From the NCBI GenBank assembly GCA_002839245.1, contig PGXR01000004.1:1-41868 (forward strand): DNA of 41,868 nt, read 5' to 3'. A program made the translations under genes and the position numbers. The notes beneath the pieces were generated by a model that did not search any database, was not told the DNA's origin, and saw nothing but the letters and a program-made list of their open reading frames with translations. The DNA comes from Spirochaetae bacterium HGW-Spirochaetae-7 (GTDB taxonomy: Bacteria > Spirochaetota > Spirochaetia > Treponematales > UBA12059). Shown here in pieces: positions 3,890 to 23,617 of the stretch (position 1 is its first letter; every line of letters begins with the position of its first letter).

Positions 3890-4831
3890 ATGGTTTCCTT
3901 CCCCATAGATACCGATGGCGGCCCGCAGGTCGTCCTTGAATTGATATACCGGCTCAAGGTGAAGGACGTGATGAAGGCCGACGTCGTGACCGCCCCGCCG
4001 GGGGCGTCCCTCCGCGATGTCCAGGCTCTGATGCGGGATCGCCGCATCACGGGCATTCCCATCGTCGAGGGGAACCGGCTGGTCGGCATCGTGTCGATCG
4101 GGGACATCATCGAGGCTCTCGACGGCGGCTGGATACACGAGGCGGCCTCCTCGAGGATGAGCAGTTCCCTCATCGTCCTGGAAGAGGACATGCCGCTGTC
4201 GTTCGCCATCACCTACTTCAACCGCTACGGATTCCGCCGCTTCCCGGTGCTGGGCAAGGATACCTCCCTGACCGGCATTGTGACCGCCGCTGACGTGCTC
4301 AGGTCCCTGCTCATCGAGATGAACCGCGAAGTCGGGCGCCTCGAGGAAGGTCTCGCCAAGCGCCGGGCGGCGGGCTCCCAGGGCGCAGGAAAGGATTCTG
4401 CCGCCAAGGCGATGCTCAGCTTCACTACCCGCCGCTTCGATTTCGAGAACGCGGGCAAGGCCTCGGCGGAGCTCAAGAAAGCGCTCAAGGCGCTCGGCGC
4501 GGACTCCGCATCGATACGCCGCGCCGCCATCGTCAGCTATGAACTGGAGATGAACCAGGTGATCCATTCGGAAGGCGGTACCATGGAGTTCACGGCAGCC
4601 GACGGCCAGGCGGCCATCATTGCCAAGGATTCCGGTCCGGGCATAGAAGACGTGGAAGCCGCGCTGACCGAGGGATTCTCGACCGCGAACGACTGGATCC
4701 GTTCCCTGGGCTTCGGCGCCGGGCTCGGACTTCCCAACGCCAGGCGGTCTTCCGACGAGTTCGAGATTACTTCGAGGGTAGGCGTCGGCACCACCGTCCG
4801 CGCCCTCGTTCGATACCAGGAGCAACAATGA
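3890..4831 (+). CDS. CBS-pair domain protein fused to a histidine-kinase-like ATPase (anti-sigma / serine-kinase-like) domain
   Basis: The 313-aa ORF carries two CBS-like segments (VKDVMKADVVTAPPGASLRDV...GIPIV and FRRFPVLGKDTSLTGIVTAADVL). Its C-terminus (DSGPGIED...GFGAGLGLPN) resembles the G-boxes of the HATPase_c fold. An alternative start at ATG 3971 has a better RBS, but it would clip the first CBS motif. Confidence 0.75.
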   Translation: MVSFPIDTDGGPQVVLELIYRLKVKDVMKADVVTAPPGASLRDVQALMRDRRITGIPIVEGNRLVGIVSIGDIIEALDGGWIHEAASSRMSSSLIVLEEDMPLSFAITYFNRYGFRRFPVLGKDTSLTGIVTAADVLRSLLIEMNREVGRLEEGLAKRRAAGSQGAGKDSAAKAMLSFTTRRFDFENAGKASAELKKALKALGADSASIRRAAIVSYELEMNQVIHSEGGTMEFTAADGQAAIIAKDSGPGIEDVEAALTEGFSTANDWIRSLGFGAGLGLPNARRSSDEFEITSRVGVGTTVRALVRYQEQQ

Positions 4832-5160
4832 AGGTTTCCGATCTCTCTTCGCGTTTCGGCTTCGAAGCCGTCTTCGTGCCTCCCCTCGATGCCGCGATCG
4901 TCAATGCCTATACTTCCGACCTGCTGTCCGACGTGATGGGCAAGGCGGCCGAAGGCTCGGCCCTGGTTACCGTGCAGGCGCACAAGAATACCGTGGCGGT
5001 CGCCTCGCTCGTCGGCATTCGCGCGGTCGTCATCTGCAACGAACGGACCGTGCCCGACGACATGGTCGAGGCGGCAAAGGCGGAGGACGTCGCTATTTTC
5101 AGGACGCCTCGGACCCAGTTCGAGGTTTCCGGGCTCCTGTACGCGGAGCTCCACGGCTAG
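4828..5160 (+). CDS. DRTGG domain protein
   Basis: 110-aa ORF. It shares an ATGA start/stop overlap with the upstream gene. The sequence ...AYTSDLLSDVMGKA...LVTVQAHKNTVAVASLVG...VICNERTVPDDMVEAA is typical of small DRTGG proteins. Confidence 0.7.
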   Translation: MKVSDLSSRFGFEAVFVPPLDAAIVNAYTSDLLSDVMGKAAEGSALVTVQAHKNTVAVASLVGIRAVVICNERTVPDDMVEAAKAEDVAIFRTPRTQFEVSGLLYAELHG

Positions 5161-5179
5161 GGCAAAGCCGGGGACCCCG

Positions 5180-5914
5180 ATGTTCGTCGCCTGCGATTTC
5201 CACAATCACTCGTGCCTCTCCCCCTGCGGCAGCCTGGAGCAATCGCCGGCGGTACTCGCCCGGCTGGCCCGGGAGAGGGGGCTGGAACTCGTCGCGCTGA
5301 CCGACCACAACAGCGCGCTGAACGCGCCCGCCTTCGCCGCCTGCGCCGCCAGGGAAGGCTTGTCGGCTCTGTTCGGCATGGAAGCGACGAGCGCCGAGGA
5401 GGTGCACGTGCTGTGCCTGTTCGCAGATCTCGACGCGGCGCTCGATTTTGGCGGGCATATCGCGTCGCTCCTGCCGCGCCTTCCGTACGATCCCGGGCTG
5501 CTCGGGGACCAAGCTGTGGTAGACGCCGACGAGAACGTTCTCGACCTGCCGGACACCTGGTTCTGCGCCGCCCTCGAGCTGGGCTACAACGAACTGTGCG
5601 CCGACGCGGCTGCCCGCGGGGCGCTGGTCATCCCGGCCCATATCGACAGGCCGATGTTCGGGGCCATATCCCAACTCGGCTTCCTGCCCGAGGGGCCGTA
5701 CTCGGCGGTAGAGGTCGTCCATCAGCTGCCCGCGGGTGTCTCCCTGGGCTACACCGTCATTACGGGCTCCGATGCCCATTATCCTGAGCACATTGGCAGG
5801 AGGCCGTTCGGTCTCGACCTGCCAGCCGGATGGAACTCGGGAGGCAAGGTCGACCTCGAGGCCGTGCGCGAAGCCCTGGCCGCGGGACTCGTCCGCCTCC
5901 CGTTCGCCCCGTGA
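5180..5914 (+). CDS. PHP-family (polymerase/histidinol-phosphatase-like) metal-dependent phosphoesterase
   Basis: 244-aa ORF. Motifs: CDFHNHS at the N-terminus, LTDHNS, IPAHIDRP and TGSDAHYPEHIG. Confidence 0.8.
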   Translation: MFVACDFHNHSCLSPCGSLEQSPAVLARLARERGLELVALTDHNSALNAPAFAACAAREGLSALFGMEATSAEEVHVLCLFADLDAALDFGGHIASLLPRLPYDPGLLGDQAVVDADENVLDLPDTWFCAALELGYNELCADAAARGALVIPAHIDRPMFGAISQLGFLPEGPYSAVEVVHQLPAGVSLGYTVITGSDAHYPEHIGRRPFGLDLPAGWNSGGKVDLEAVREALAAGLVRLPFAP

Positions 5915-8970: not shown

Positions 8971-10366
8971 GCGCGGCACTATCATCGTGGTGGACGACGA
9001 CGTCGGGGTGCTCAAGCGGCTGGAGCGGTCGCTGCGCTTCGAAGGCTACGGCGACGTGGTCCTGTGCGAGCGGGCGGAGGATGCCTGGCCCGTCCTCGAT
9101 TCCCGCAAGGCGCTGGCGATGATCCTTGACCTGATGATGCCTGGCGTCGACGGCTACGCCATGCTCGAGCGGATGCGCACCGAACGGCCCGACGTTCCGG
9201 TCATCGTAGCCACGGCCATCGACGACCTGGACGCGGTGGTGCGTTGCATGAAGGCGGGAGCCTTCGACTACGTGCCCAAGTCGGCCGAGACGGCCAGGCT
9301 GGTCGCCAGCCTCGAGCACGCCACGATGATAGGAAGGCTCCTGGATGACAACAAGGCTCTCCGCGACAGCCTGCTTTCCGACAGCGGCCGGTCTGCCCCT
9401 TTCTTTGAGCACATCATCACCCGCGACCGGCGGATGGCGGACATCTTCCGCTACATAGCGGCCATAGCCATCAGCGACAAACCCATCCTGATCACCGGCG
9501 AGTCGGGCACGGGCAAGGAATTGTTCGCCGCCGCGGTCCATGCGGCATCGGGCCGATCGGGACAGCTCGTCACCGTCAACATAGCCGGCCTCGACGACGC
9601 GATGTTCAGCGACACGCTGTTCGGCCACAAGCGCGGAGCGTTCACGGGCGCTGATTCTGACCGGCCCGGCCTCATAGAGCGCGCCAAGGGCGGTACGCTG
9701 TTCCTCGACGAGATAGGCGACTTGCCGCAGCAAAGCCAGGTCAAGCTGCTGCGGCTGATAGAGCAGCGGCTGTACTATCCGCTCGGGGCCGACCTCACCA
9801 GGTCGTCCGATGCCCTCGTCGTCGCGGCGACGAACAGGGACCTGGAAGCGGCCTGCGACTCGGGCCAGTTCAGGCAGGACCTTTACTATCGCCTCGAGAC
9901 TCACAGGATCCGCTTGCCACCTCTGCGCGAGCGTCTGGACGACATTCCGCTGCTCGTCGAGTCGTTCGTCGCCCGCGCTTCGGTCAAATTCGAGAGGCCG
10001 GAGCCGTTGGTCCCCCCCGAGCTCTACGAGCTGCTCGGCACCTATGATTTTCCCGGAAACGTCCGCGAGCTCGAGTCGATGGTCTACGATGCTGTCGGCC
10101 GGGCTTCCGGCCGCAACCTGTCGCTGGAGTCGTTCAAGTCGAGGGTATTCAAGGAAAATTCCAGGCCTTCCGCGGCCCGGTCGCTGGCCGCGGGCATCTT
10201 TGCCTCGTTGCCGTCGCTGCCGACGCTCCGCGAGGCGGCCGACTCGCTGGTAGAGGAAGCCCTCGCGAGGGCGGGCGACAACCAGGGCGTGGCGGCAGGG
10301 CTTCTCGGAATTTCCAGGCCGGCGCTCAACCGCCGCCTGCGTCAACGCGGCGACGACGAGTGCTAG
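8960..10366 (+). CDS. Sigma-54-dependent response regulator (NtrC family: REC + AAA+ + Fis-type HTH)
   Basis: 468-aa ORF. Walker A is GESGTGKE. The GAFTGA sigma-54 contact loop is present (HKRGAFTGAD). The motifs GGTLFLDEIG and FRQDLYYRL are present, and the C-terminal HTH reads AAGLLGISRPALNRRL. The start overlaps the kinase stop by 11 nt. Confidence 0.92.
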   Translation: MDDKRGTIIVVDDDVGVLKRLERSLRFEGYGDVVLCERAEDAWPVLDSRKALAMILDLMMPGVDGYAMLERMRTERPDVPVIVATAIDDLDAVVRCMKAGAFDYVPKSAETARLVASLEHATMIGRLLDDNKALRDSLLSDSGRSAPFFEHIITRDRRMADIFRYIAAIAISDKPILITGESGTGKELFAAAVHAASGRSGQLVTVNIAGLDDAMFSDTLFGHKRGAFTGADSDRPGLIERAKGGTLFLDEIGDLPQQSQVKLLRLIEQRLYYPLGADLTRSSDALVVAATNRDLEAACDSGQFRQDLYYRLETHRIRLPPLRERLDDIPLLVESFVARASVKFERPEPLVPPELYELLGTYDFPGNVRELESMVYDAVGRASGRNLSLESFKSRVFKENSRPSAARSLAAGIFASLPSLPTLREAADSLVEEALARAGDNQGVAAGLLGISRPALNRRLRQRGDDEC

Positions 10367-10572
10367 TGGGGTGTGCAAAAGCTGACACCTGTCGATTGTC
10401 GTATACATGGAGGCAATTGGCTCCCTGATATGCAAATAGACGCGATTTACGGCTGATTTAATCTATAGTTTTTGCTGGATTCGAACATGGGACTTGCCGC
10501 AGCGGATTTCGATCTAGGCCGACAATTACATTAGCTGTATGGAAATACAAAATAGCATGAAGCCATAGTCGT

Positions 10573-10589
10573 TGGCACGATCCGTGCAT
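10573..10589 (+). promoter_or_regulatory. Sigma-54 (-24/-12) promoter
   Basis: TGGCAC-gatcc-GTGCAT at 10573-10589. GG (10574-75) and GC (10586-87) have the canonical spacing of the consensus TGGCAC-N5-TTGCW. It sits about 205 nt downstream of the EBP gene. Confidence 0.7.
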
Positions 10590-10598
10590 AACAATAAG

Positions 10599-10742
10599 TG
10601 GTCAGCTTGAGTCCCATTCCATGTAAAAAATGTTCAGGTAAAAAAGTCATATAAAAAAGTTCAGAACAAAACAAGGGACTGATGTAAAGATTGAAAAATG
10701 GTTTATACGCGGAACGCCTGACCCGGCGTTCCGCAGTTTTTT
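10599..10742 (+). ncRNA. Candidate sigma-54-dependent small RNA (about 145 nt, no credible ORF)
   Basis: The predicted TSS lies about 11-12 nt after the -12 GC. The segment holds only 1-7 codon ORFs (ATG-TAA, MFR*, MVYTRNA*). It has three A-rich imperfect repeats, TAAAAAA(T)GT(T)CA, at 10623-10664. It ends at the terminator at 10709-10742. Confidence 0.5.
10709..10742 (+). terminator. Rho-independent terminator
   Basis: A perfect 10-bp stem GCGGAACGCC/GGCGTTCCGC (10709-10718 with 10725-10734) has a 6-nt loop. It is followed by AG and then six T (10737-10742). Confidence 0.8.
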
Positions 10743-10844
10743 AAACCAGCGCTCCATGACCCCGCAACCTCTCGCTCGCTGCCCGGTCGAACTGGGCATG
10801 GATCGCGGCGCGCTTAAGCGCGGCGGCGACTGAAAGGTGATTGC

Positions 10845-11516
10845 ATGTCAGAAACTGTCCTCGAACCCGGTTCGTTGTCTCCTGTCCGCTATCCTCTCGG
10901 CGAGGAGATAGCGAATGCGGTGACCCATGGAGTCTGGGCTCTGCTGTCGATTGCCGGCCTCGTCATCCTGGTGGTGTCGGCCGCCGTCCGGGGCGATGCG
11001 TGGTACGTCGTTTCATTTGCCGTATTCGGCCTCTCCGCCGTTCTCCTGTTTACCATGTCCACCATCTACCACGCAATCGCGGCGCCACGGGCTAAACGGG
11101 TGCTGAAGGTGCTCGACCATTCGTCCATCTATGTGCTTATAGCCGGGACCTATACGCCGTTCGCGCTGACCGCTCTCAGGCATACGGTCGGCTGGCTGGT
11201 CTTCGGCATCGTCTGGGGCGCGGCAGCCATAGGCATATCGTTGAAACCCTTCCTGGCCGGCAAGGCCAGGCTGCTGTCGACCATATCCTATGTCGCCATG
11301 GGTTGGATCATCGTAATAGCGTGGCGTCCGCTCGTCGACGCGGTCGAGGCGGGCTCCCTGCGCCTGCTCATTGCCGGCGGCCTTGCCTATACCGTCGGGG
11401 CGGCCTTCTACATGATCAAGGGCAGGGTCTGGTCGCATCCGCTGTGGCACCTGTTCGTCGGTGCCGGCGCGACTCTGCATTTTTTCGCCGTGATTGCCCT
11501 GCTCCCGCCTGGATAA
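10845..11516 (+). CDS. Hemolysin III / PAQR family channel protein
   Basis: 223-aa, 7-TM ORF. It has the N-terminal EEIANAVTHG and the motifs STIYH, LDHSSIYVLIAGTYTP and HLFV....H. Confidence 0.88.
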   Translation: MSETVLEPGSLSPVRYPLGEEIANAVTHGVWALLSIAGLVILVVSAAVRGDAWYVVSFAVFGLSAVLLFTMSTIYHAIAAPRAKRVLKVLDHSSIYVLIAGTYTPFALTALRHTVGWLVFGIVWGAAAIGISLKPFLAGKARLLSTISYVAMGWIIVIAWRPLVDAVEAGSLRLLIAGGLAYTVGAAFYMIKGRVWSHPLWHLFVGAGATLHFFAVIALLPPG

Positions 11517-11677
11517 TATGAGCCAACCTGGGAAGGGGAATTGGCTCGCTCTGTACTGAGCGAAGCGACAGTATATAACCCGAATCGAGGACCAAAGGCC
11601 GCGATTCGGAACGTAGCTCAACCTGACTCACTTCGTTTGCAGGTTAACTGTGCTAGAAGATGAGTCATGATTACACC

Positions 11678-11693
11678 GCCCGCGCTAGCGGGC
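11678..11693 (+). other. GC-rich hairpin immediately 5' of the intron insertion point
   Basis: GCCCGC-gcta-GCGGGC. It is followed by ATATGATAT and then the intron 5' GTGCG at 11703. Confidence 0.6.
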
Positions 11694-11702
11694 ATATGAT
11701 AT

Positions 11703-12640
11703 GTGCGCCCGGCAGGACGCACCCACCAGGAGGTGCGGCGAGAAATCGTCGAGTCCTCTACAGGCCCAACAGGGGTAACTGTCAGCGACCGGCAAGGGTG
11801 TCCATCGTGAGATGGAATCTGAAGAAAGCCATAGCAAAACGCGGCCTGTCGCTTGCGCACCGAAGGCCCGAACAGAAACCGCATGCGAGGCAGCCATGAT
11901 GGACAAGGGGGCATAATTGCCCAAAGTCCTGTACCTGTACGGAAATCATGGCAGTATATACGGCAGGCATAAGCGTGAAGGTGGCTCATGACAGTAGTCA
12001 TGGCGCATTACCCGGGGAGGTCTGGATGCCTGCTGAAAGGCTACCTTGGTCGCGAGGCCGGGGGATGGGCAGCCAGCCGGAAGTCAGCAGAGGTCGTAGT
12101 AGGACCGATCAGCGGGGTCGAAGGACCGAACATGAGACGCGGATGTATCCCAGCGTCTCGCGGCGGAGCAGGATGTTGAAAACAGACGGTTAAAATCCCG
12201 AACCACTCGCAAAACAATCCGGACGGAATCCGGGAGTAGCGCGGATAAGTGGAACATCACAAAGCCCAGCGACAAAGGACACGAGCGCGCTGATGGTATA
12301 AGAGTGTTTATAGAACTCGACCAATGGATACGGCGCAAGCTCCGGTGCATTACTGGCAACAATGGAAACGACCGCGAACTCGATTCAGGTACCTCGTCAG
12401 ACTCGGTTTGGATGAAGAGAGGGCACGAAAGTCGGTTGGGAACGGTCACGGGGCGTGGTTAAACGCTGGTGCCAGTCATATGAATCAGGCAATTCCCGTT
12501 AGACTCTTCGAGAGGCTTGGGCTTCTCTCCCTTTACTCCAGAATGCTTGGGTTTCAGAGCATTTCATGAACCATCGTATACGAAACCGTACGTACAGTGG
12601 TGTGAGAGGAGGGGGCCGTAAGGCCCCCTCCTACTCGGTA
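11703..12640 (+). mobile_element. Degenerate, maturase-deleted group II intron (3' boundary approximate)
   Basis: The 5' end is GTGCG at 11703. A domain-V-like hairpin spans 12570-12601: a 9-bp lower helix, a 2-nt bulge (c12591, g12592), a 4-bp upper helix and a 4-nt loop. Its CGTATAC...GTACGTAC sequence resembles known domain V sequences. A domain-VI hairpin spans 12603-12637 with a GTAA loop and a single bulged A at 12633. Only an IEP C-terminal remnant is present. The many short ORFs on both strands are consistent with structured RNA. Confidence 0.7.
12324..12569 (+). pseudogene. C-terminal remnant of a group II intron reverse transcriptase/maturase (IEP)
   Basis: 81 aa: ...HYWQQWKRPRTRFRYLVRLGLDEERARKSVGNGHGAWLNAGASHMNQAIPVRLFERLGLLSL... 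This matches the conserved IEP tail pattern (W.K...R...L..LG......A.S..G.W..A.S......P...F...GL.SL). The RT domains are absent. Confidence 0.7.
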
Positions 12641-12781
12641 AGGGGGCGTTGGGCGGAACCGAACCCATCGCCGCAAGCCGGTGAGCGGCAGACGAGCGCA
12701 CGCCAAAGGCGCGAAGAGGCGCCAGTGATGGCGCCGACAGCGAGCGTTGGCGGCCCGGACACGAGGTCGAGGGCCAGAGGG

Positions 12782-12819
12782 CGATTCCGCCCGGCGCATT
12801 AGTCCGCCGGGCGGAATCG
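12782..12819. terminator. Perfect 15-bp hairpin downstream of the LRR gene (possible bidirectional terminator)
   Basis: CGATTCCGCCCGGCG (12782-12796) pairs with CGCCGGGCGGAATCG (12805-12819) across an 8-nt loop. There is no clean U-run on the minus strand. A T-rich tract follows on the plus strand. Confidence 0.4.
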
Positions 12820-12840
12820 AGGTAACTTATAGTAATTTTT

Positions 12841-14169
12841 CTATTCTTGCTCTTCGTAATATACGGTCACACCCGCGGCTATCAGGTCTTCAATATTAGC
12901 CAAGGCCGCTGAGCCAGTTGAAATATCGAGACCCATATATTTTATGTTAATCTCCGCCGAATTCTCTTGGAACGATCCGGCTAGGTACATCTTCCAGAGG
13001 AAGTCGATGTCGTCGATATCCGTGTTCCCCTCGAGGTTTATGTAGTTGAGGGTGCCGTACCAGGCTGGTAGGTAGTCTCCGTCCTGGCTGAAGGCGACGG
13101 AGCTGAGAGCGTTATAACTGACGTCCATGCCGGTAAGGAGCGGAAGAGGCGCTATCGATGACATGAACATGGCGTTGGTAATATTCGAACTACTGATGGT
13201 AATCCAGTCTAGGGTTGCAGAAAACTTCGTCATGATGGTTGATAGGACGCTTCCCGTAATATCGGGGAAGCTCCTGATGGTTAGATTTGTCAAGTCAGTG
13301 AACCTGTTCAATATAGTCTTGAGTTGCTCCGCGGTGATATAGGTAACGCCGTTCATCTGACCCCTAATGCCAAGGGCGAATAGATCGGGGAAATTCTCGG
13401 GCGTTATAATCGAGCTTAGGTTATTATAGGGGATGGGGTTATTGTGTAGACGCAGCAACTGCAGCTTATGAAGTCCACTGAGCGCTGTAACATCAGAGAT
13501 GGTGTTGCCTTGAAGCGTAAGCCGTTCGAGTAGAACCAACCTCTTTATCGGGCTTACATCCGTTATGGTGTTGAACCTAAGGTGGAGCTCTCGCAGGGAG
13601 TGGCATAGGTCGATTCCACTGATGATGGCGATGCTAGAGGAATCCGCAGTAAAGACATCGATCGCGTCGAGGTCCGCCGTGCTGATTCCCTCAGACCAGG
13701 GCGTGCCTGCCGCGGTCGCGAGGGCTGCACGGAGATTGGCGTCAGGTATCCTCGCCACGAAATCAGAAATGACGCCCGAGGTCATGAAGGTCCAAGTGGG
13801 GCTGGCTTTAATCTGGCCGCCAGGCAATTTGGCTACGACTTTCCATTGGAAGTCCTTGGCGCCGGACAGAGCCGCCGGTGGCGTCCATGATGCAGAAGCG
13901 AGGTTGCTTGCCGTTGGCGTAGAGGGGATCGAGTCCTCGCCGAAATAGAGGTCGTAGGTAACACTAGACCCGTCGCTGGCGACGGCCTCAGACCACGCTA
14001 TAGTCGCGATGTCCGCGGCGACGCTGTAGGCAAAATCAGCCGGGACCGGTGCCGAGGGGCTCGTGATGGTTGCGTTGGAACTGATGGGGCCGATGGGGTC
14101 CGTGCAGCTCCATGCCAAGACGATGACGAGGGCGAGACACGCGTTCCAGAAAAGGCGTTTTATCTTCAT
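12841..14169 (-). CDS. Secreted/lipoprotein with an Fn3-like domain and internalin-type leucine-rich repeats
   Basis: 442 aa. The signal peptide MKIKRLFWNACLALVIVLAWSC has a Cys after the hydrophobic core. LRR units include LRELHLRFNTITDVSPIKRLVLLERLTLQGNTISDVTALSGLHKLQLLRLHNNPI. GC content is clearly lower than in the flanks. Confidence 0.8.
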   Translation of the reverse strand: MKIKRLFWNACLALVIVLAWSCTDPIGPISSNATITSPSAPVPADFAYSVAADIATIAWSEAVASDGSSVTYDLYFGEDSIPSTPTASNLASASWTPPAALSGAKDFQWKVVAKLPGGQIKASPTWTFMTSGVISDFVARIPDANLRAALATAAGTPWSEGISTADLDAIDVFTADSSSIAIISGIDLCHSLRELHLRFNTITDVSPIKRLVLLERLTLQGNTISDVTALSGLHKLQLLRLHNNPIPYNNLSSIITPENFPDLFALGIRGQMNGVTYITAEQLKTILNRFTDLTNLTIRSFPDITGSVLSTIMTKFSATLDWITISSSNITNAMFMSSIAPLPLLTGMDVSYNALSSVAFSQDGDYLPAWYGTLNYINLEGNTDIDDIDFLWKMYLAGSFQENSAEINIKYMGLDISTGSAALANIEDLIAAGVTVYYEEQE

Positions 14170-14238
14170 GTTCCTGCTCCTTCGGGCGATCGCGCCCGAA
14201 AGAGAGTCTACGTCGCGTGACGCTAGCCAGTACTACAA

Positions 14239-15336
14239 CTATAGTTGGTCCTTCTCGGAGGCCGGTAGACCGAGTACGAGCTCGACCCTGGTTTTTAGGC
14301 CGGTCTTCTCGTAGATATTATGGGTATAGCGCTTAATTGTTGTTTCCTCGACGCGCAGGTCACAGGCAATCGCTTTATTACTCTTGCATTGAAGTATGCC
14401 GCGGATGACCTCTCGCTCACGAGGCGTAAAAGCATAATTACCTTGGCAGAGCTCTAGCTGCGCTCCATCTATCCGCGCTTGCTTCATCGGCAAGAGCCTT
14501 ACGGCGGCGCAAGGAACGCCCTTCTGTTCTATGTATAACGACCCGGGTTTCACTGGCGAGAACCTGAATGAGTACTCCCTGCCTGACTTTTCGAGCCTCA
14601 CGGTATCCATGCCGAGGCGAAAAGGGCCGTATAGGTAGGTGCTGTAGGATGTTAGAAACTGGCTCCATCTATGGTGCATTGCGCTTCCGAGCCTAGCCCG
14701 CGTTACGCCGAAGAGCTCATCGAACGCGGTTTTTACATGATCGCCAGCGTAGACGATGTTTCCCGCATAGTCTAGATATCCTGTATCCTCATCGCTCGGC
14801 GGCAATACCAACGACCGTTCGAAGGCATCGTTAAGGAAGGAGGCGACGAACCAGAAAACGTCGAGGTCGTCATCAGAAAAATCCCGGTTGCGGAGACCAG
14901 CTCTCGCCAGTGCGATATAGCCGCGAAGCGTGGCCCCGGTCCGGATCGGAAAGTACGCGACATCCGATATTGGCCGGGAATCCTGTACCGCTCTGATGAA
15001 ATTCCGATTCTCCGGCTGGTTAAAATCGCTCATCCGCTTCAGGACGCAACTTGTTCCTGAATGAACAATCGACTTAGTCAGGAAATCTTCTTGTACGACC
15101 GAGGTGTACACGGGGATAAACTCCGCCGGGTTGTTGGTCAGGAAGATAGGGTGATCGCATCGAGCATGGGAGAATAGGAAAAATCCGAAGTAGTGAGCCT
15201 CGAGAGCCATGCCGAGATCGTGCGCGACCCTGAGTATTAATCCCTCGTCAAACGCGCTTGTGTAGAGAGCGACAAGAATTTTTCTTATGATCGCTAACTT
15301 GATCGTGGACACGTACATGAGCGTGCTCCCTATCAT
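14239..15336 (-). CDS. LuxR-family transcriptional regulator (uncharacterised N-terminal sensor domain + C-terminal HTH)
   Basis: 365 aa. The C-terminus FTPREREVIRGILQCKSNKAIACDLRVEETTIKRYTHNIYEKTGLKTRVELV is a canonical LuxR/GerE HTH. The gene lies in the low-GC island. Confidence 0.85.
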   Translation of the reverse strand: MIGSTLMYVSTIKLAIIRKILVALYTSAFDEGLILRVAHDLGMALEAHYFGFFLFSHARCDHPIFLTNNPAEFIPVYTSVVQEDFLTKSIVHSGTSCVLKRMSDFNQPENRNFIRAVQDSRPISDVAYFPIRTGATLRGYIALARAGLRNRDFSDDDLDVFWFVASFLNDAFERSLVLPPSDEDTGYLDYAGNIVYAGDHVKTAFDELFGVTRARLGSAMHHRWSQFLTSYSTYLYGPFRLGMDTVRLEKSGREYSFRFSPVKPGSLYIEQKGVPCAAVRLLPMKQARIDGAQLELCQGNYAFTPREREVIRGILQCKSNKAIACDLRVEETTIKRYTHNIYEKTGLKTRVELVLGLPASEKDQL

Positions 15337-15491
15337 CGATTATCGATAAGAAAGTATACACGCCGTTGGAAAGTCGTGGCAAGAATATTTTTTAATAATA
15401 TATAGTTTTCCGCGTGCGCGAAGCGTGTCTCCTCAGCATCATCGCTTAGCCGGTAGAGCGTCATTGGCGCAGTCTGTGCCGGCTATCCCGG

Positions 15492-16133
15492 TTACTGCAA
15501 ACCCACCAGCATTGCCATCGTCACGTGAAGGATGCCTTCGTCCCAGAAATTGTCATTGCCCGACCAGGCGTTGAAAATGGGGAGGAAGCCGCGGATGCCC
15601 ATGGCGAAGGTGAAGTTCTGCTGCAGGTAGACGTCGAAGCGCAGGGATGCCGACGGATAGAACCAGCGGCCGTCGCTCCAGAGATACGAGGCGATGGAGG
15701 AGAGGATCTGGTCCGTCGTGTCGCTCGCGAACGAGGCGCGGAAAAGGAAGGCCGTGCCGACTGACGCGGCCCCGCCCAGGCGTTCGTTGAAGCGGATGGT
15801 GGCCGTCAGCGGCACGTCGAAAAGGAAGCCGACGACGAAGGCGTTGTTGCCGCCTCCCGTTTCGGTCTCCGTCGGGACCGCTCGGCCGTCGCTCCACTCG
15901 TAGTTTGTCCAGAAGAGGTCGAGACCCGGCTGAAGGCTCAGGAAAAATCCCTTGGAAAACGAGAGGATTGCCGAGCCTCCGAGCGTGTTGACGACCGGGC
16001 TGGCGGCGCCGAGGCCGGAGCCGTTGTTCACGATGGCGACGCCGAAACGGCCCGAGACGGCCTCGATATCCATTGCGCCCGGCATTCCGAGCACCGCGAC
16101 GGCCATGCCGGCCGCTAGAATGATTCGCTTCAT
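15492..16133 (-). CDS. Hypothetical secreted, beta-strand-rich protein (possible outer-membrane beta-barrel)
   Basis: 213 aa. The signal peptide is MKRIILAAGMAVAVLGMPGA. The sequence shows an alternating hydrophobic pattern and is rich in Gly and aromatic residues. Confidence 0.55.
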   Translation of the reverse strand: MKRIILAAGMAVAVLGMPGAMDIEAVSGRFGVAIVNNGSGLGAASPVVNTLGGSAILSFSKGFFLSLQPGLDLFWTNYEWSDGRAVPTETETGGGNNAFVVGFLFDVPLTATIRFNERLGGAASVGTAFLFRASFASDTTDQILSSIASYLWSDGRWFYPSASLRFDVYLQQNFTFAMGIRGFLPIFNAWSGNDNFWDEGILHVTMAMLVGLQ

Positions 16134-21275: not shown

Positions 21276-21484
21276 TGTTTTCTCATTGCTCCAATGAAGG
21301 ATATGCAAGAAGCGATCCAAATTTAGCAGTGCGCAAGATGCTTGTTCTATATATATGCTGTCAAGATAATTATATCCGATATAACAAAGGCTTGACAGCA
21401 AGGTATCGAAAGAACGTATGGTATTTCATACTTCCAGTATGGCGATGTACATACTGTACCGCTTCCCGGGACGACAGCCCCGTG

Positions 21485-21514
21485 TTGACACGGGACTCGA
21501 CCCGAAGTTAATAT
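21485..21514 (+). promoter_or_regulatory. Sigma-70 promoter upstream of the tRNA-Val locus
   Basis: TTGACA (21485-21490), an 18-nt spacer, then TAATAT (21509-21514). The predicted TSS is near 21521, so the 5' tRNA-like fragment lies inside the transcript. Confidence 0.55.
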
Positions 21515-21565
21515 CCCCGGCGTATTGTCTGTTTGTCGAGTCGATTGACTCAGCGGGAGAGTGCG

Positions 21566-21704
21566 CGCTTGGCTTGCTTTCCTGCATTAGTATTTTTTGT
21601 GGGCGATTAACTCAGCGGGAGAGTGCTACCTTCACACGGTAGAAGTCACTGGTTCAATCCCAGTATCGCCCACTAAAAATACCGAATCGAAAGCAAGCCA
21701 AGCG
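21566..21704. repeat. Perfect 16-bp inverted repeat flanking the intact tRNA-Val
   Basis: CGCTTGGCTTGCTTTC (21566-21581) is the exact reverse complement of GAAAGCAAGCCAAGCG (21689-21704). A third, direct partial copy, CGAAAGCAAGCCAA, lies at 21839-21852. Confidence 0.9.
21601..21672 (+). tRNA. tRNA-Val (anticodon CAC)
   Basis: I hand-folded the cloverleaf. Acceptor: GGGCGAT/ATCGCCC. D arm: ACTC/GAGT. Anticodon arm: CTACC-TTCACAC-GGTAG. Variable loop: AAGTC. T arm: ACTGG-TTCAATC-CCAGT. Discriminator: A. CCA is not encoded. Confidence 0.9.
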
Positions 21705-21850
21705 AACCTTCACACGGTAGAAGTCACTGGTTCCTCGCCAGGGTACTGGCAGCGCCTGAGTACGCGTTCGTTCGCGAACGCTACGTCAATCGTACTCGAT
21801 TGACGAAAGCCCAGTATCGCCCACCAAAAACGCTGAAGCGAAAGCAAGCC

Positions 21851-22093
21851 AATTGGATCCTGGATTTCATTACGCATCCGATGGGGGCGATTTTCGGCGG
21901 GAAACCGTTACCACCCGACCTCCCGCTTCTTTTTGCCGGTTCTCCCAAAGTCGGACTTGGCATGTACAACCGCTCGTACGCTCTGGCCATAGCTTTCGAT
22001 GTTTGGCTGACGGTTGCAGGCATCGCGTCCTATGTCGCGTTCCGGAAGAGCGGGTCATCAAGCATAAGGAACGAAGGATCAGGCTCTCGGTAG
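21851..22093 (+). pseudogene. C-terminal fragment of a membrane-protein gene (N-terminal part missing)
   Basis: ...WILDFITH...PDLPLLFAGSPKVGLGMYNRSYALAIAFDVWLTVAGIASYVAF resembles only the C-terminal third of a membrane-protein family with a W.LD..TH...PDLPL...PKVGLG pattern. The upstream part of the track ORF (21800-21850) is tRNA-derived sequence. The 3' end overlaps the convergent kinase gene. Confidence 0.35.
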
Positions 22094-23617
22094 TACCTGG
22101 CGCATTCCGTCGTCTGCCGGCAAGGACAGCCGGAATGACGATCCTTTGCCCGGAGCGCTCGTCACCTCCAGTCTTCCGTGCATTAGCCTGGTGAATTCCA
22201 TCGACAGGATCAGGCCGAAGCCGACTCCCTGCTCGCCGTTCGTTCCCGTGCGGTGAAGATGGCCGTCCACCTTGAACAGTTTAGACAACTCGTCGGCATC
22301 CATCCCGACACCTTCGTCATTCACGGAGATCCGCCATCCTGCGCTATCCCGCTCGGCATGAACCGAAACACAAGTCCCGGCGGGCGAGAATTTTACCGCA
22401 TTCTGGAGCAGGTTGCGGAGCACGGAATCGAGCATGTCCCGGTCCGCGGCTACCATTAGCCCGCCGGATGCGGGAACCTCCAGCCTGACGCCCTTGCTTG
22501 CCGCCGCTTCTCGCAGGATCTCGGCTTGTTCCCGGATGGATGCCGAAGCGTCGACGCCGGTGATGACAGGGAGGATAGCCCCGCTCTGGCAGCGGGCCCA
22601 CGCGAGCACCTTGTCGACCAGCGCCAATGAGGCCGTGGCCGTTTTCCCGATCTCGGCGAGCATGACGCTGTCTTTCGGGTCGATGGAAGCGCCCATCGAG
22701 GAAACGAGGTAGTCGGTAGCGCTTTCTATCCCTGAGAGCGGACTTTTCAGGTCATGGCTGAGGATGGAAAAGAAAGTGTTCTTGGCTTCGTTGGACAGGC
22801 TCAGCTCCAGTTCGCTCGCCCTGAGCTTCGTGAACATCTGTTCCTGCGGCCGCTCGAGGCCCGTTACCATTATGGAGCGGTAGATGAGATAGAAAGACGC
22901 TATCTTCAATAAATGCCCGGTCATGTTGAGCCAGTCGAAATTGGAAATGTACAGGGTGAAGGAGAGCTCCGACAGGACGGTCAGGAAGATCGACAGTATC
23001 AGGTTGACGTAAACTTCGCGGGAATACCTGGAACGGTTACGGCGGAGAGTCCATGCCGCTAACAGCAGGATTGCTATGATGACGGTCTCCGCGGCCACCT
23101 TGAAGGCGGTCTGGCCCGATCCGGCGACGAAGCATGCCGGGAATACCCTGTATATGAAAATGCTCGCGAAGATGGCGGCCGTGTACAGAGTATAAGCCCC
23201 TACGATCGGCGCCGCACGCCGGCCGGCCCGGTCGTGGTAGGCGTTGAATGACAGCAGGCTGACGGCTTCGAGGAACCGGGCAGCCACCCACAGCTGATTC
23301 GCGGGATACAGGTATCCGGGGAACAGGCCCATGCCGGCGAAGGCGAGCGTATGGAATAGATCGATGAAGGCGATGAAGGCATAGGCGATCCCGAGCGTCA
23401 CGAGCGAAGGCACCTGGTTGTATTTGCGGGTGTGCCAGGCAACCAGGAAGTAGCTGGCGGCGATGATGATGCTGAACAGTTCGGCCAGGCTGTGGAACAG
23501 GAGATAGCTCCAGGCGCGTGACGCCAAAATGGCCGCCAGAACCAGGGCAAGGCCGGCGATCGAACGGCGGTTCGTGGAGAGCGTCGATGGAGGAGGTATG
23601 CTGGCTTCGGCAGTCAT
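22079..23617 (-). CDS. Membrane sensor histidine kinase (MASE3-like multi-TM N-terminus + HisKA + HATPase)
   Basis: 512 aa with about 7 TM segments (HSLAELFSIIIAASYFLVAWH...). The H-box is FFSILSHDLKSPLSGI. The ATPase boxes are LRNLLQNAVKF, NDEGVGM and GVGFGL. Confidence 0.88.
   Translation of the reverse strand: MTAEASIPPPSTLSTNRRSIAGLALVLAAILASRAWSYLLFHSLAELFSIIIAASYFLVAWHTRKYNQVPSLVTLGIAYAFIAFIDLFHTLAFAGMGLFPGYLYPANQLWVAARFLEAVSLLSFNAYHDRAGRRAAPIVGAYTLYTAAIFASIFIYRVFPACFVAGSGQTAFKVAAETVIIAILLLAAWTLRRNRSRYSREVYVNLILSIFLTVLSELSFTLYISNFDWLNMTGHLLKIASFYLIYRSIMVTGLERPQEQMFTKLRASELELSLSNEAKNTFFSILSHDLKSPLSGIESATDYLVSSMGASIDPKDSVMLAEIGKTATASLALVDKVLAWARCQSGAILPVITGVDASASIREQAEILREAAASKGVRLEVPASGGLMVAADRDMLDSVLRNLLQNAVKFSPAGTCVSVHAERDSAGWRISVNDEGVGMDADELSKLFKVDGHLHRTGTNGEQGVGFGLILSMEFTRLMHGRLEVTSAPGKGSSFRLSLPADDGMRQVLPRA

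Follow-up and report, generated by a model that had tools for sequence, protein, structure and literature searches.

A 41,868-nt stretch of the genome of Spirochaetae bacterium HGW-Spirochaetae-7, an uncultured and Treponemataceae-like spirochaete (contig PGXR01000004.1; hereafter the window) carries an intact tRNA-Val(CAC) gene that is enclosed by a base-paired leader–trailer stalk and lies inside the broken halves of a second, partly decayed copy of the same gene. Nests of this kind recur in related spirochaetes, where the layout reaches three or four layers. The explanation that we favour, and consider probable though far from assured, is that the locus is one transcription unit in which a selected two-helix stalk surrounds the intact tRNA-Val, nested shells decay around it, and recombination turns these shells over.

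An intact tRNA-Val gene nested in a split copy of itself

The inner tRNA-Val(CAC) was called at 21601–21672/3 by both ARAGORN and Rfam (RF00005, 64 bits against a gathering score of 29), and it is the only tRNA-Val(CAC) gene seen in the 41.9-kb window. A repeat finder places a perfect inverted repeat around it (21566–21581 and 21689–21704, complementary at 16/16 positions), of a kind expected by chance in 550 nt only ~3e-5 times by rough arithmetic. Between this repeat and the tRNA, the leader pairs with the trailer (21590–21600 with 21672–21682); together with the acceptor stem, 21590–21607 pairs with 21665–21682 at 17 of 18 positions. The stalk consists of two helices, a 16-bp distal one and an ~11-bp proximal one, separated by an internal loop. 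The composite is laid out as follows.

21485–21514 (+), promoter of sigma-70 type (TTGACA, 18-nt spacer, TAATAT; 10/12 matches) that would serve the composite as a whole
21539–21564 (+), 5′ half of the outer (shell) tRNA-Val, positions 1–27, decayed (23/26 identical to the inner copy; two of the three mismatches in the acceptor stem)
21565 (+), junction G in place of T28, 5′ side (the form GTGC/G/CG... is conserved in relatives)
21566–21581 (+), 5′ strand of the distal stalk helix, IR-L, CGCTTGGCTTGCTTTC (inverted repeat; covariation)
21582–21589 (+), 5′ side of the stalk internal loop (fold)
21590–21600 (+), 5′ strand of the proximal stalk helix (leader), running on into the acceptor stem, with a pair between position –1 and A73
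21601–21672 (+), inner tRNA-Val(CAC), intact and functional-looking, no encoded CCA (ARAGORN, Rfam)
21673–21682 (+), 3′ strand of the proximal stalk helix (trailer; pairing)
21683–21688 (+), 3′ side of the stalk internal loop (fold)
21689–21704 (+), 3′ strand of the distal stalk helix, IR-R, GAAAGCAAGCCAAGCG (inverted repeat; covariation)
21705 (+), linker A, 3′ side of the junction (the form ...CG/A/ACC is conserved in relatives)
21706–21733 (+), 3′ part of the shell, tRNA positions 29–56 (28/28 identical to the inner copy)
21734–21806 (+), 73-nt interruption of the shell T loop, three hairpins (21737–21750, 21764–21781, 21784–21805)
21807–21826 (+), 3′ end of the shell, positions 57–73 plus CCA (one mismatch over 57–73)
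21827–21852 (+), shell trailer, which starts like the CCAAAAACGC trailer of stalk lineage iii (see below) and ends in a copy of the IR-R motif (21839–21852)

An earlier note, made by a model from the sequence alone, had described most of these elements, without stressing the proximal helix, and all that it described are present at its coordinates with an offset of at most 1 nt. The programs agree with it on the canonical tRNA, on the two halves of the second tRNA-Val and on the promoter. Its 140-nt segment with inverted ends (21565–21704) needs one refinement, in that 21565 is an extra junction G lying outside the perfect arms. The trailer duplication that it reported is part of a 46-nt copy: 21807–21852, which spans the shell 3′ end and trailer, is 87% identical to 21656–21701, and the trailer motif CGAAAGCAAGCCAA occurs three times in the window, always at the tRNA-Val locus. 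Downstream of the nest and in the same orientation, TGGGGGCGATTTTCGGCGGGAAACCG at 21882–21910 resembles a decayed tRNA-Val 5′ half (compare TGGGCGATTAACTCAGCGGGAGAGTGC).

The folding that the note proposed as a check gave –64.5 kcal/mol for the 151-nt unit, compared with –37.5 ± 4.0 in shuffles (z = –6.8), and z = –6.5 for the 341-nt composite. Contigs from four other samples, two of them complete and two partial over the composite, match it at 100% identity, and two of these contigs stop inside the repeats; this base-for-base identity in independent assemblies rules out an assembly artefact. A dispersed repeat inside the window was likewise rejected, as there is no second copy of the unit there. 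An Rfam scan of 21400–21950 (E-values up to 10) found no family besides tRNA, and two small-RNA matches farther downstream are at chance level. The composite arrangement is not a chance product; it is non-random and unusual.

Stalk pairing across related Spirochaetota

Species-representative genomes were scanned with the 28-mer common to both tRNA copies, and further loci (numbered with the prefix L) came from a junction-pattern scan of metagenomes and from look-ups via the neighbouring gene. The tRNA segment itself is conserved in several phyla; the extra pieces and the complementarity of leader and trailer were found in Spirochaetota only, and among the 87 tRNA-Val loci examined the pairing is limited to this phylum. 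Each fetched locus carries tRNA-Val only, apart from a single tRNA-Gln (L023), which has no stalk.

We anchored 14 stalks at their junctions and scored the first 12 positions of the distal helix, giving 168 cells. In register, 154/168 cells are paired, compared with 43–60 of 140–168 (26–43%) at shifted registers, and cognate partners average 11/12 pairs against 6.6/12 for non-cognate ones. The first two pairs are constant, while columns 3–12 show two to five Watson–Crick pair types each (at least three except in column 8). An alignment of fixed-length, junction-anchored arm constructs was then used in place of an earlier one in which MAFFT had misaligned the distal 3′ arm and RNAalifold detected the proximal helix only. 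In the newer alignment the distal helix is 88.7% paired versus 63.9 ± 2.6% in shuffles (0/500 reach the observed value), 13/14 pairs have changed on both sides, and the covariation score is 0.71 versus 0.23; with the partner slid, pairing falls to 23–38%. Two rows (L128 and L130) are still partly shifted, so these counts are conservative. In the proximal helix 117/120 cells are paired, and RNAalifold reports nine pairs with compensatory double changes. These comparisons, which the earlier note had proposed for the 16-bp helix, indicate that the stalk is a selected base-paired structure across related Spirochaetota, rather than the terminal repeat of a transposon or the scar of an integration. 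A functional leader–trailer helix, one of three possibilities that the note had left side by side, is thereby supported: the base pairing has been kept across species through many compensatory changes.

Another of the three was a classical miniature inverted-repeat transposable element (MITE), with the transposase encoded elsewhere. The 140-nt size and the perfect 16-bp terminal inverted repeats would suit such an element. The termini that a transposase recognises should keep their sequence, however, whereas here the arms are conserved only in their complementarity, with two constant pairs and covariation in the rest. There is no target-site duplication at the junction, where T28 is replaced by G...A; no dispersed copies occur in the window or in the fetched loci; and neither the tRNA carried nor its syntenic locus ever varies. 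We find a MITE hardly credible.

The stalks include at least three lineages (i, ii and iii) that are met with in more than one genome, and the window's stalk belongs to lineage i. Whenever an intact tRNA has a 5′ stalk strand, the adjoining 3′ strand is its cognate partner, which suggests that the matched innermost stalk is under selection.

Nests at a single syntenic locus

In a Treponemataceae metagenome-assembled genome (MAG), represented by two contigs (L025 and L106), the nest has the window's geometry and junctions (...GTGC/G/stalk ... stalk/A/ACCTTC...) with a different 16-bp repeat (CACGAAGCGTGCCTTC / GAAGGCACGCTTCGTG), and it is enclosed by a further level that has its own 15-bp repeat. 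L132 contains three perfect 5′ halves, each followed by a different stalk strand, then the intact tRNA, and then 3′ parts behind the matching strands. L136 has at least four 3′ modules, in L141 a T-loop-type insertion is nested within one of the 27/28 type, and recursion is also found at L105 and across L125–L132. Other break points follow the same logic, at 29/30 in L096 and at 52–57 in L111, L033 and L040. Across the clade, as many as three perfect 5′ halves and as many as four or more 3′ parts are arranged in matched nested order, and each nest has exactly one intact tRNA-Val(CAC). The window is a one-level, partly decayed example. Four plain-looking loci (L024, L009, L108 and L100) keep the stalk and the junctions though their shells are nearly erased. 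The nest architecture is recursive and clade-wide at one locus, each level with its own matched stalk.

The gene order ProRS–DUF2259–orf267–membrane enzyme–tRNA–TPR protein is maintained down to 30–56% protein identity; the orf267 product has 267 aa, the membrane enzyme 211 aa and the TPR protein, across the nest from these, 1022 aa. There is no recombinase or integrase among the genes flanking the nest. The junction pattern has zero matches in viral contigs, and phage and plasmid records match the tRNA itself only. This conserved context indicates that the nest is one locus, vertically inherited.

These observations bear on the remaining possibility of the earlier note, that of a scar, here in the form of repeated integration and excision of integrase-type elements at tRNA-Val, with filler from the repair of local breaks. 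The break points fall in the anticodon and T arms, which are reportedly (Williams 2002) the classical sublocations of integrase crossover in tRNA genes; moreover, L111, L128, L010 and L136 carry tandem 3′ fragments. Against this, no integrase or element DNA lies between the repeats, where the 'element' would be 33–140 nt long, and the syntenic flanking genes directly abut the nest. Just 33 nt of trailer separates the tRNA from the 3′ fragment, whereas at a duplicated integrase attachment (att) site the integrase and the DNA of the element lie in between. An att scar accounts neither for duplicated 5′ halves, as opposed to 3′ parts alone, nor for the strand after each 5′ piece being complementary, with covariation, to the strand before its 3′ partner. 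What stands of the note's proposal is that the outer pieces are relics reshuffled by recombination between repeats; integration as their source is improbable and, by the covarying stalk, largely refuted.

The outer shell and its T-loop insert

Across the loci, 16 of the 21 detectable 5′ halves are identical (26/26) to the functional copy. Decay is seen in the outermost halves, with six mismatches in L125 and L130 and three in the window. In the window's shell only 5/7 acceptor-stem positions pair. These comparisons indicate that the outer pieces come from an earlier tRNA-Val gene that was split in two at 27/28, and that in the window they form a decaying pseudogene shell.

The 73-nt insert in the shell T loop (21734–21806), which the earlier note rightly called self-complementary, folds into its three hairpins with z = –3.8. 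Hairpin 1 has homologues among the T-loop hairpins that 3′ modules carry in L106, L132 and L136, and the homologues of hairpins 2 and 3 form a distal hairpin pair, GCGCGTTCGTTCACGAACGCGAC-GCCAATCGTACCCGATTGGC, that is conserved in L136, L137, L126 and L131. Because of these homologies, the insert is best read as a fusion of older modules rather than as a fresh insertion. Owing to T3 and G9, at which the shell 5′ half differs from the inner copy, 21541–21549 is 9/9 identical (TCGATTGAC) to 21797–21805, the 3′ arm of insert hairpin 3, in which relatives read CCGATTGGC; the shared 9-mer could be a short conversion tract or chance.

The stalk emerges exactly at the break and would join the shell halves, which prompts the question, already raised in the earlier note, of whether the locus is a working bacterial split tRNA (or tRNA-like RNA) whose halves the stalk holds once the inner tRNA has been cut out, much as complementary sequences hold those of split tRNAs in Nanoarchaeum. 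In several relatives the second-level halves are perfect and, when spliced in silico, score as tRNA-Val (L025, L096 and L132), and the outer-level stalks are often still complementary (14/16 for lineage i in L132, 15/16 for lineage iii in L025). The window's shell does not behave in this way: besides the two mismatched acceptor-stem positions, T28 is absent, with an unpaired G and A in its place, the T loop is split by 73 nt, and ARAGORN recognises a tRNA only when splicing in silico takes out the 73-nt piece as well as the segment at 27/28. The two ends of that segment at 27/28 are paired with one another and not with an exon, leaving one unpaired nucleotide per side, and neither the sequence nor the folds contain the 3-nt bulges separated by 4 bp of a bulge-helix-bulge motif. 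The outermost shells decay freely in many species. In addition, a stalk of ~27 bp rising from the anticodon stem is expected to clash with the ribosome, and we know of no bacterial enzyme that removes such a stalk. We judge a working split tRNA to be very improbable.

Module turnover and the origin of the nests

The differences between close relatives consist of whole modules. One ~150-nt repeat unit distinguishes L137 from L138, and both have lost all 5′ modules, so that the intact tRNA stands directly behind the promoter; L136 resembles L132 minus two 5′ modules; and L126 and L131 differ by one 3′ module. Such differences are the expected products of recombination between direct repeats of tRNA pieces, and they indicate that levels are gained and lost between close strains in this way. 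The order of stalk lineages also varies, with iii outside ii in L025 and ii outside iii in L126, L127, L131 and L132, and modules may follow one another periodically in an array (ii′, iii′, ii′, iii′ in L025/L106).

We propose that nesting began when a complete stalked unit came to sit inside the then-functional gene. One route would be recombination in which the half-copies (26 nt and 45 nt, identical to the ultra-conserved tRNA) serve as homology arms; another would be a process aimed at cloverleaf loops and junctions. Breaks and inserts lie at positions 8–10, 27/28, 29/30, 32/33, 42/43 and 52–57, which are mostly cloverleaf loops or junctions, and structure-dependent breakage at these places can be offered as speculation. 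From none of the simple slippage, template-switch and cruciform-resolution schemes considered could we obtain the nested order; models with a TA or 1-nt target-site duplication do not match the junctions.

A more radical view is that the unit propagates itself. As a selfish, self-targeting cassette, a stalk–tRNA–stalk unit of ~140 nt would insert into tRNA-Val(CAC), destroy its target and take over the target's function; since it brings a fresh target with it, later insertions would nest inside earlier ones. It would spread either by using the half-copies as homology arms after DNA uptake or through a structure-recognising enzyme. Several features agree with stalked units having entered the then-functional gene repeatedly. 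Every level and every stalk lineage has one and the same junction, and the order of lineages differs between genomes as described above. Inner shells are perfect though their stalks are ~50% diverged, and decay grows from the inside outward. In L096 the outer copy is the allele of termite-gut Treponema relatives (GGACGAT...ATCGTCC, C16), while the intact inner tRNA is the GGGCGAT/T16 allele typical of another subclade and looks foreign. Set against these, the unit is always at one syntenic chromosomal locus, with no second copy in the window and, as noted above, no trace of its junction in viral contigs or, beyond the tRNA alone, in phages and plasmids. No recombinase is nearby, and the conserved neighbour is a membrane enzyme resembling phytol or dolichol kinases. 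Unequal recombination and concerted evolution in an array would also give perfect copies, periodic module orders and decayed edges, and the usual excess of 3′ over 5′ modules is not a prediction of strict nesting. We think the selfish cassette unlikely. Taken more broadly, to cover either a self-propagating stalked tRNA-Val that homes into, splits and replaces the resident gene or the expression of stalk-held, tRNA-like half-molecules, the alternative is doubtful but deserves a little more credence; in its self-propagating form, the conserved tRNA halves left behind would be the unit's own targeting arms, and Russian-doll nests would result.

Some loci carry further insertions and fusions. One 3′ module has a conserved insert of ~70 nt at tRNA position 42/43 (L132, 6739–6718, –; L136, 503–524 and 898–919, +). 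On the strand opposite the tRNA this insert reads as a terminator-like hairpin with a T-rich tail (CTTGCGCTCGCTAACGCGCAAG GTATTGTTAT), and it might terminate the convergent TPR gene. In termite-gut Treponema (L033, ~4250–4750, –; L040, ~4900–5300, +) an outer tRNA-Val has a structured 72-nt insert in its anticodon loop, and L033 has, farther upstream, an additional copy of a portion of this unit (AGAGTGCTACC plus the insert). Another Spirochaetota MAG (L023, 1700–1762, +) has tRNA-Val positions 29–73 fused to GGGCGA plus a 7-bp hairpin that replaces the D arm; the surroundings of this fusion are unrelated, an intact tRNA-Val is absent for 8 kb around it, and ARAGORN makes no call there.

Transcription and a proposed role for the stalk

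In L132, L136 and L141 a promoter equivalent to that of the window immediately precedes the outermost 5′ half, and a scan between the nest levels of these three loci and the window found none comparable to the upstream one. A scan found no intrinsic terminator after the composite; a hairpin at ~21896–21927 followed by a T-rich run is no better than shuffles (z = 0.84). We propose that the whole region 21485–21852 is transcribed as one precursor and that the stalk acts in the RNA, clamping the real tRNA in its correct fold within a long structured transcript. This placement of its action at the RNA level is based on the position of the promoter and on the covariation.

In thermodynamic models, the probability of the inner acceptor stem is 0.96–0.97 with the stalk intact, whatever the flanks, and ~0.42 on average when both stalk strands are scrambled. 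We had considered that the stalk might be a specific antidote to the competing half-copies; this is not borne out in silico, the clamp effect being general to long flanks. In these models, then, the stalk would work as a general clamp in a long structured precursor and not as a half-copy-specific one.

Pairing that extends the acceptor stem inhibits bacterial RNase P (PMC9433436). The stalk pairs from position –1 onward with position 73 onward, and it is therefore likely that it would be cut or opened first, before RNase P and the 3′ processing enzymes finish. By analogy with ribosomal RNA (rRNA) leader–trailer helices, RNase III is a candidate for this early cut.

Weighing the evidence

Several points weigh against the account that we favour, in which a selected stalk surrounds the tRNA in one transcription unit and the shells are decaying and recombining relics. 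The additional break points (29/30 in L096; 52–57 in L111, L033, L040 and L141) amount to several founding events, which a purely accidental origin does not account for. The junction is identical (GTGC/G ... A/ACC) at every level and in every stalk lineage, a regularity that calls for a mechanism, and homology arms of 26 nt and 45 nt are at the lower limit for RecA-type recombination. Near-identical inner shells beside strongly diverged stalks call for gene conversion or a recent insertion. The stalk helices show no clear excess of G-U pairs over A-C mismatches, and for this reason the stalk may instead be a structure of single-stranded DNA. L137 and L138 carry an intact tRNA without any 5′ stalk strand, so the stalk is not indispensable. 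Finally, scrambling the half-copies along with the stalk restores the modelled acceptor-stem probability only to ~0.52.

Neighbouring genes and other features of the window

The divergent 211-aa neighbour is a multi-pass membrane protein that its sources name a phosphatidate cytidylyltransferase or a dolichol/phytol kinase; it has no Pfam or NCBIfam match. In L133 the 1.5 kb upstream of a homologue of this enzyme contains a PAP2 gene and no tRNA-Val, and adjacency of the tRNA to the enzyme is therefore not universal. On the other side of the nest, the TPR gene directly adjoins it in most relatives; in the window and L100 only, a gene for a MASE3 sensor histidine kinase (window 22079–23617, –) stands between the two.

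Elsewhere in the window, 11801–12126 (+) matches Rfam group II intron domains (D1D4-3, 95.5 bits; D1D4-1, 50.3 bits). No open reading frame of reverse-transcriptase size follows on the plus strand, and the intron is therefore probably truncated or lacks its reading frame. It lies in a stretch (~10000–16000) with a G+C content of 0.54–0.58, compared with 0.62–0.69 elsewhere, that also contains genes for a leucine-rich-repeat protein (12841–14169, –) and a LuxR-type regulator (14239–15336, –). This stretch may be a horizontally acquired island.

Relation to known systems

The closest parallel to the stalk is found in precursor rRNA, whose leader–trailer helices are RNase III processing stalks (Gemler et al. 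2024, PMC11404451). In both, complementary leader and trailer sequences surround the mature RNA within a single precursor, and the pairing is conserved and supported by covariation while the sequences are diverse. Unlike those helices, the stalk described here encloses a single 72-nt tRNA instead of 16S or 23S rRNA, continues the acceptor stem, and stops precisely where the halves of the broken gene copy begin. An Rfam scan detects no rRNA in the window.

Archaeal split, tri-split and multi-intron tRNAs, known from Nanoarchaeum, Caldivirga and the Thermoproteales (reviewed in PMC4090602 and PMC3978253), likewise have halves that are apart in the DNA, complementary flanks able to bring these together and non-canonical interruption sites that include the T loop. 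The present locus differs in being bacterial and recursive, in lacking a bulge-helix-bulge and in having as its 'intron' a complete functional copy of the same tRNA; the window's outer halves, moreover, appear to be decaying and not to be expressed as a tRNA. A group I intron in a tRNA was also considered and rejected, the insertion being at 27/28 and not in the anticodon loop, and tRNA being the only Rfam family in 21400–21950.

Integrated elements commonly leave tRNA fragments in prokaryotes (van der Gulik et al. 2023, PMC9897764; Sugahara et al. 2012, PMC3293823), and partial copies beside an intact gene, with breaks in the anticodon and T arms, are common to those cases and this one. The nests differ from them in having no element or recombinase, in including 5′ halves, in their matched and covarying complementary flanks, and in their nested order. 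With nested target-specific mobile elements such as twintrons and nested insertion sequences they share the Russian-doll geometry expected of elements that carry or recreate their own target; unlike these, the unit has no identifiable catalytic RNA or transposase, measures only ~140 nt and is confined to one chromosomal locus. Full-text literature searches found no description of such a nested bacterial tRNA locus, in agreement with the earlier note, and the self-nested layout appears to be undescribed in bacteria.

The nests have a practical consequence, in that they break short-read assemblies (two contigs here end inside them) and can mislead tRNA annotation. If our description holds, bacteria can have disrupted and nested tRNA genes whose complexity has until now been linked to archaea and red algae, yet which follow another principle, without a bulge-helix-bulge and with a complete working copy within the break. 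A leader–trailer helix around a bacterial tRNA, backed by covariation, raises questions about the order in which RNase III, RNase P and the 3′ processing enzymes act. The locus would also be a natural experiment in how an essential small gene survives repeated self-disruption, in the compensatory evolution that keeps paired flanks matched, and in whether a tRNA gene can act as a selfish, self-targeting cassette.

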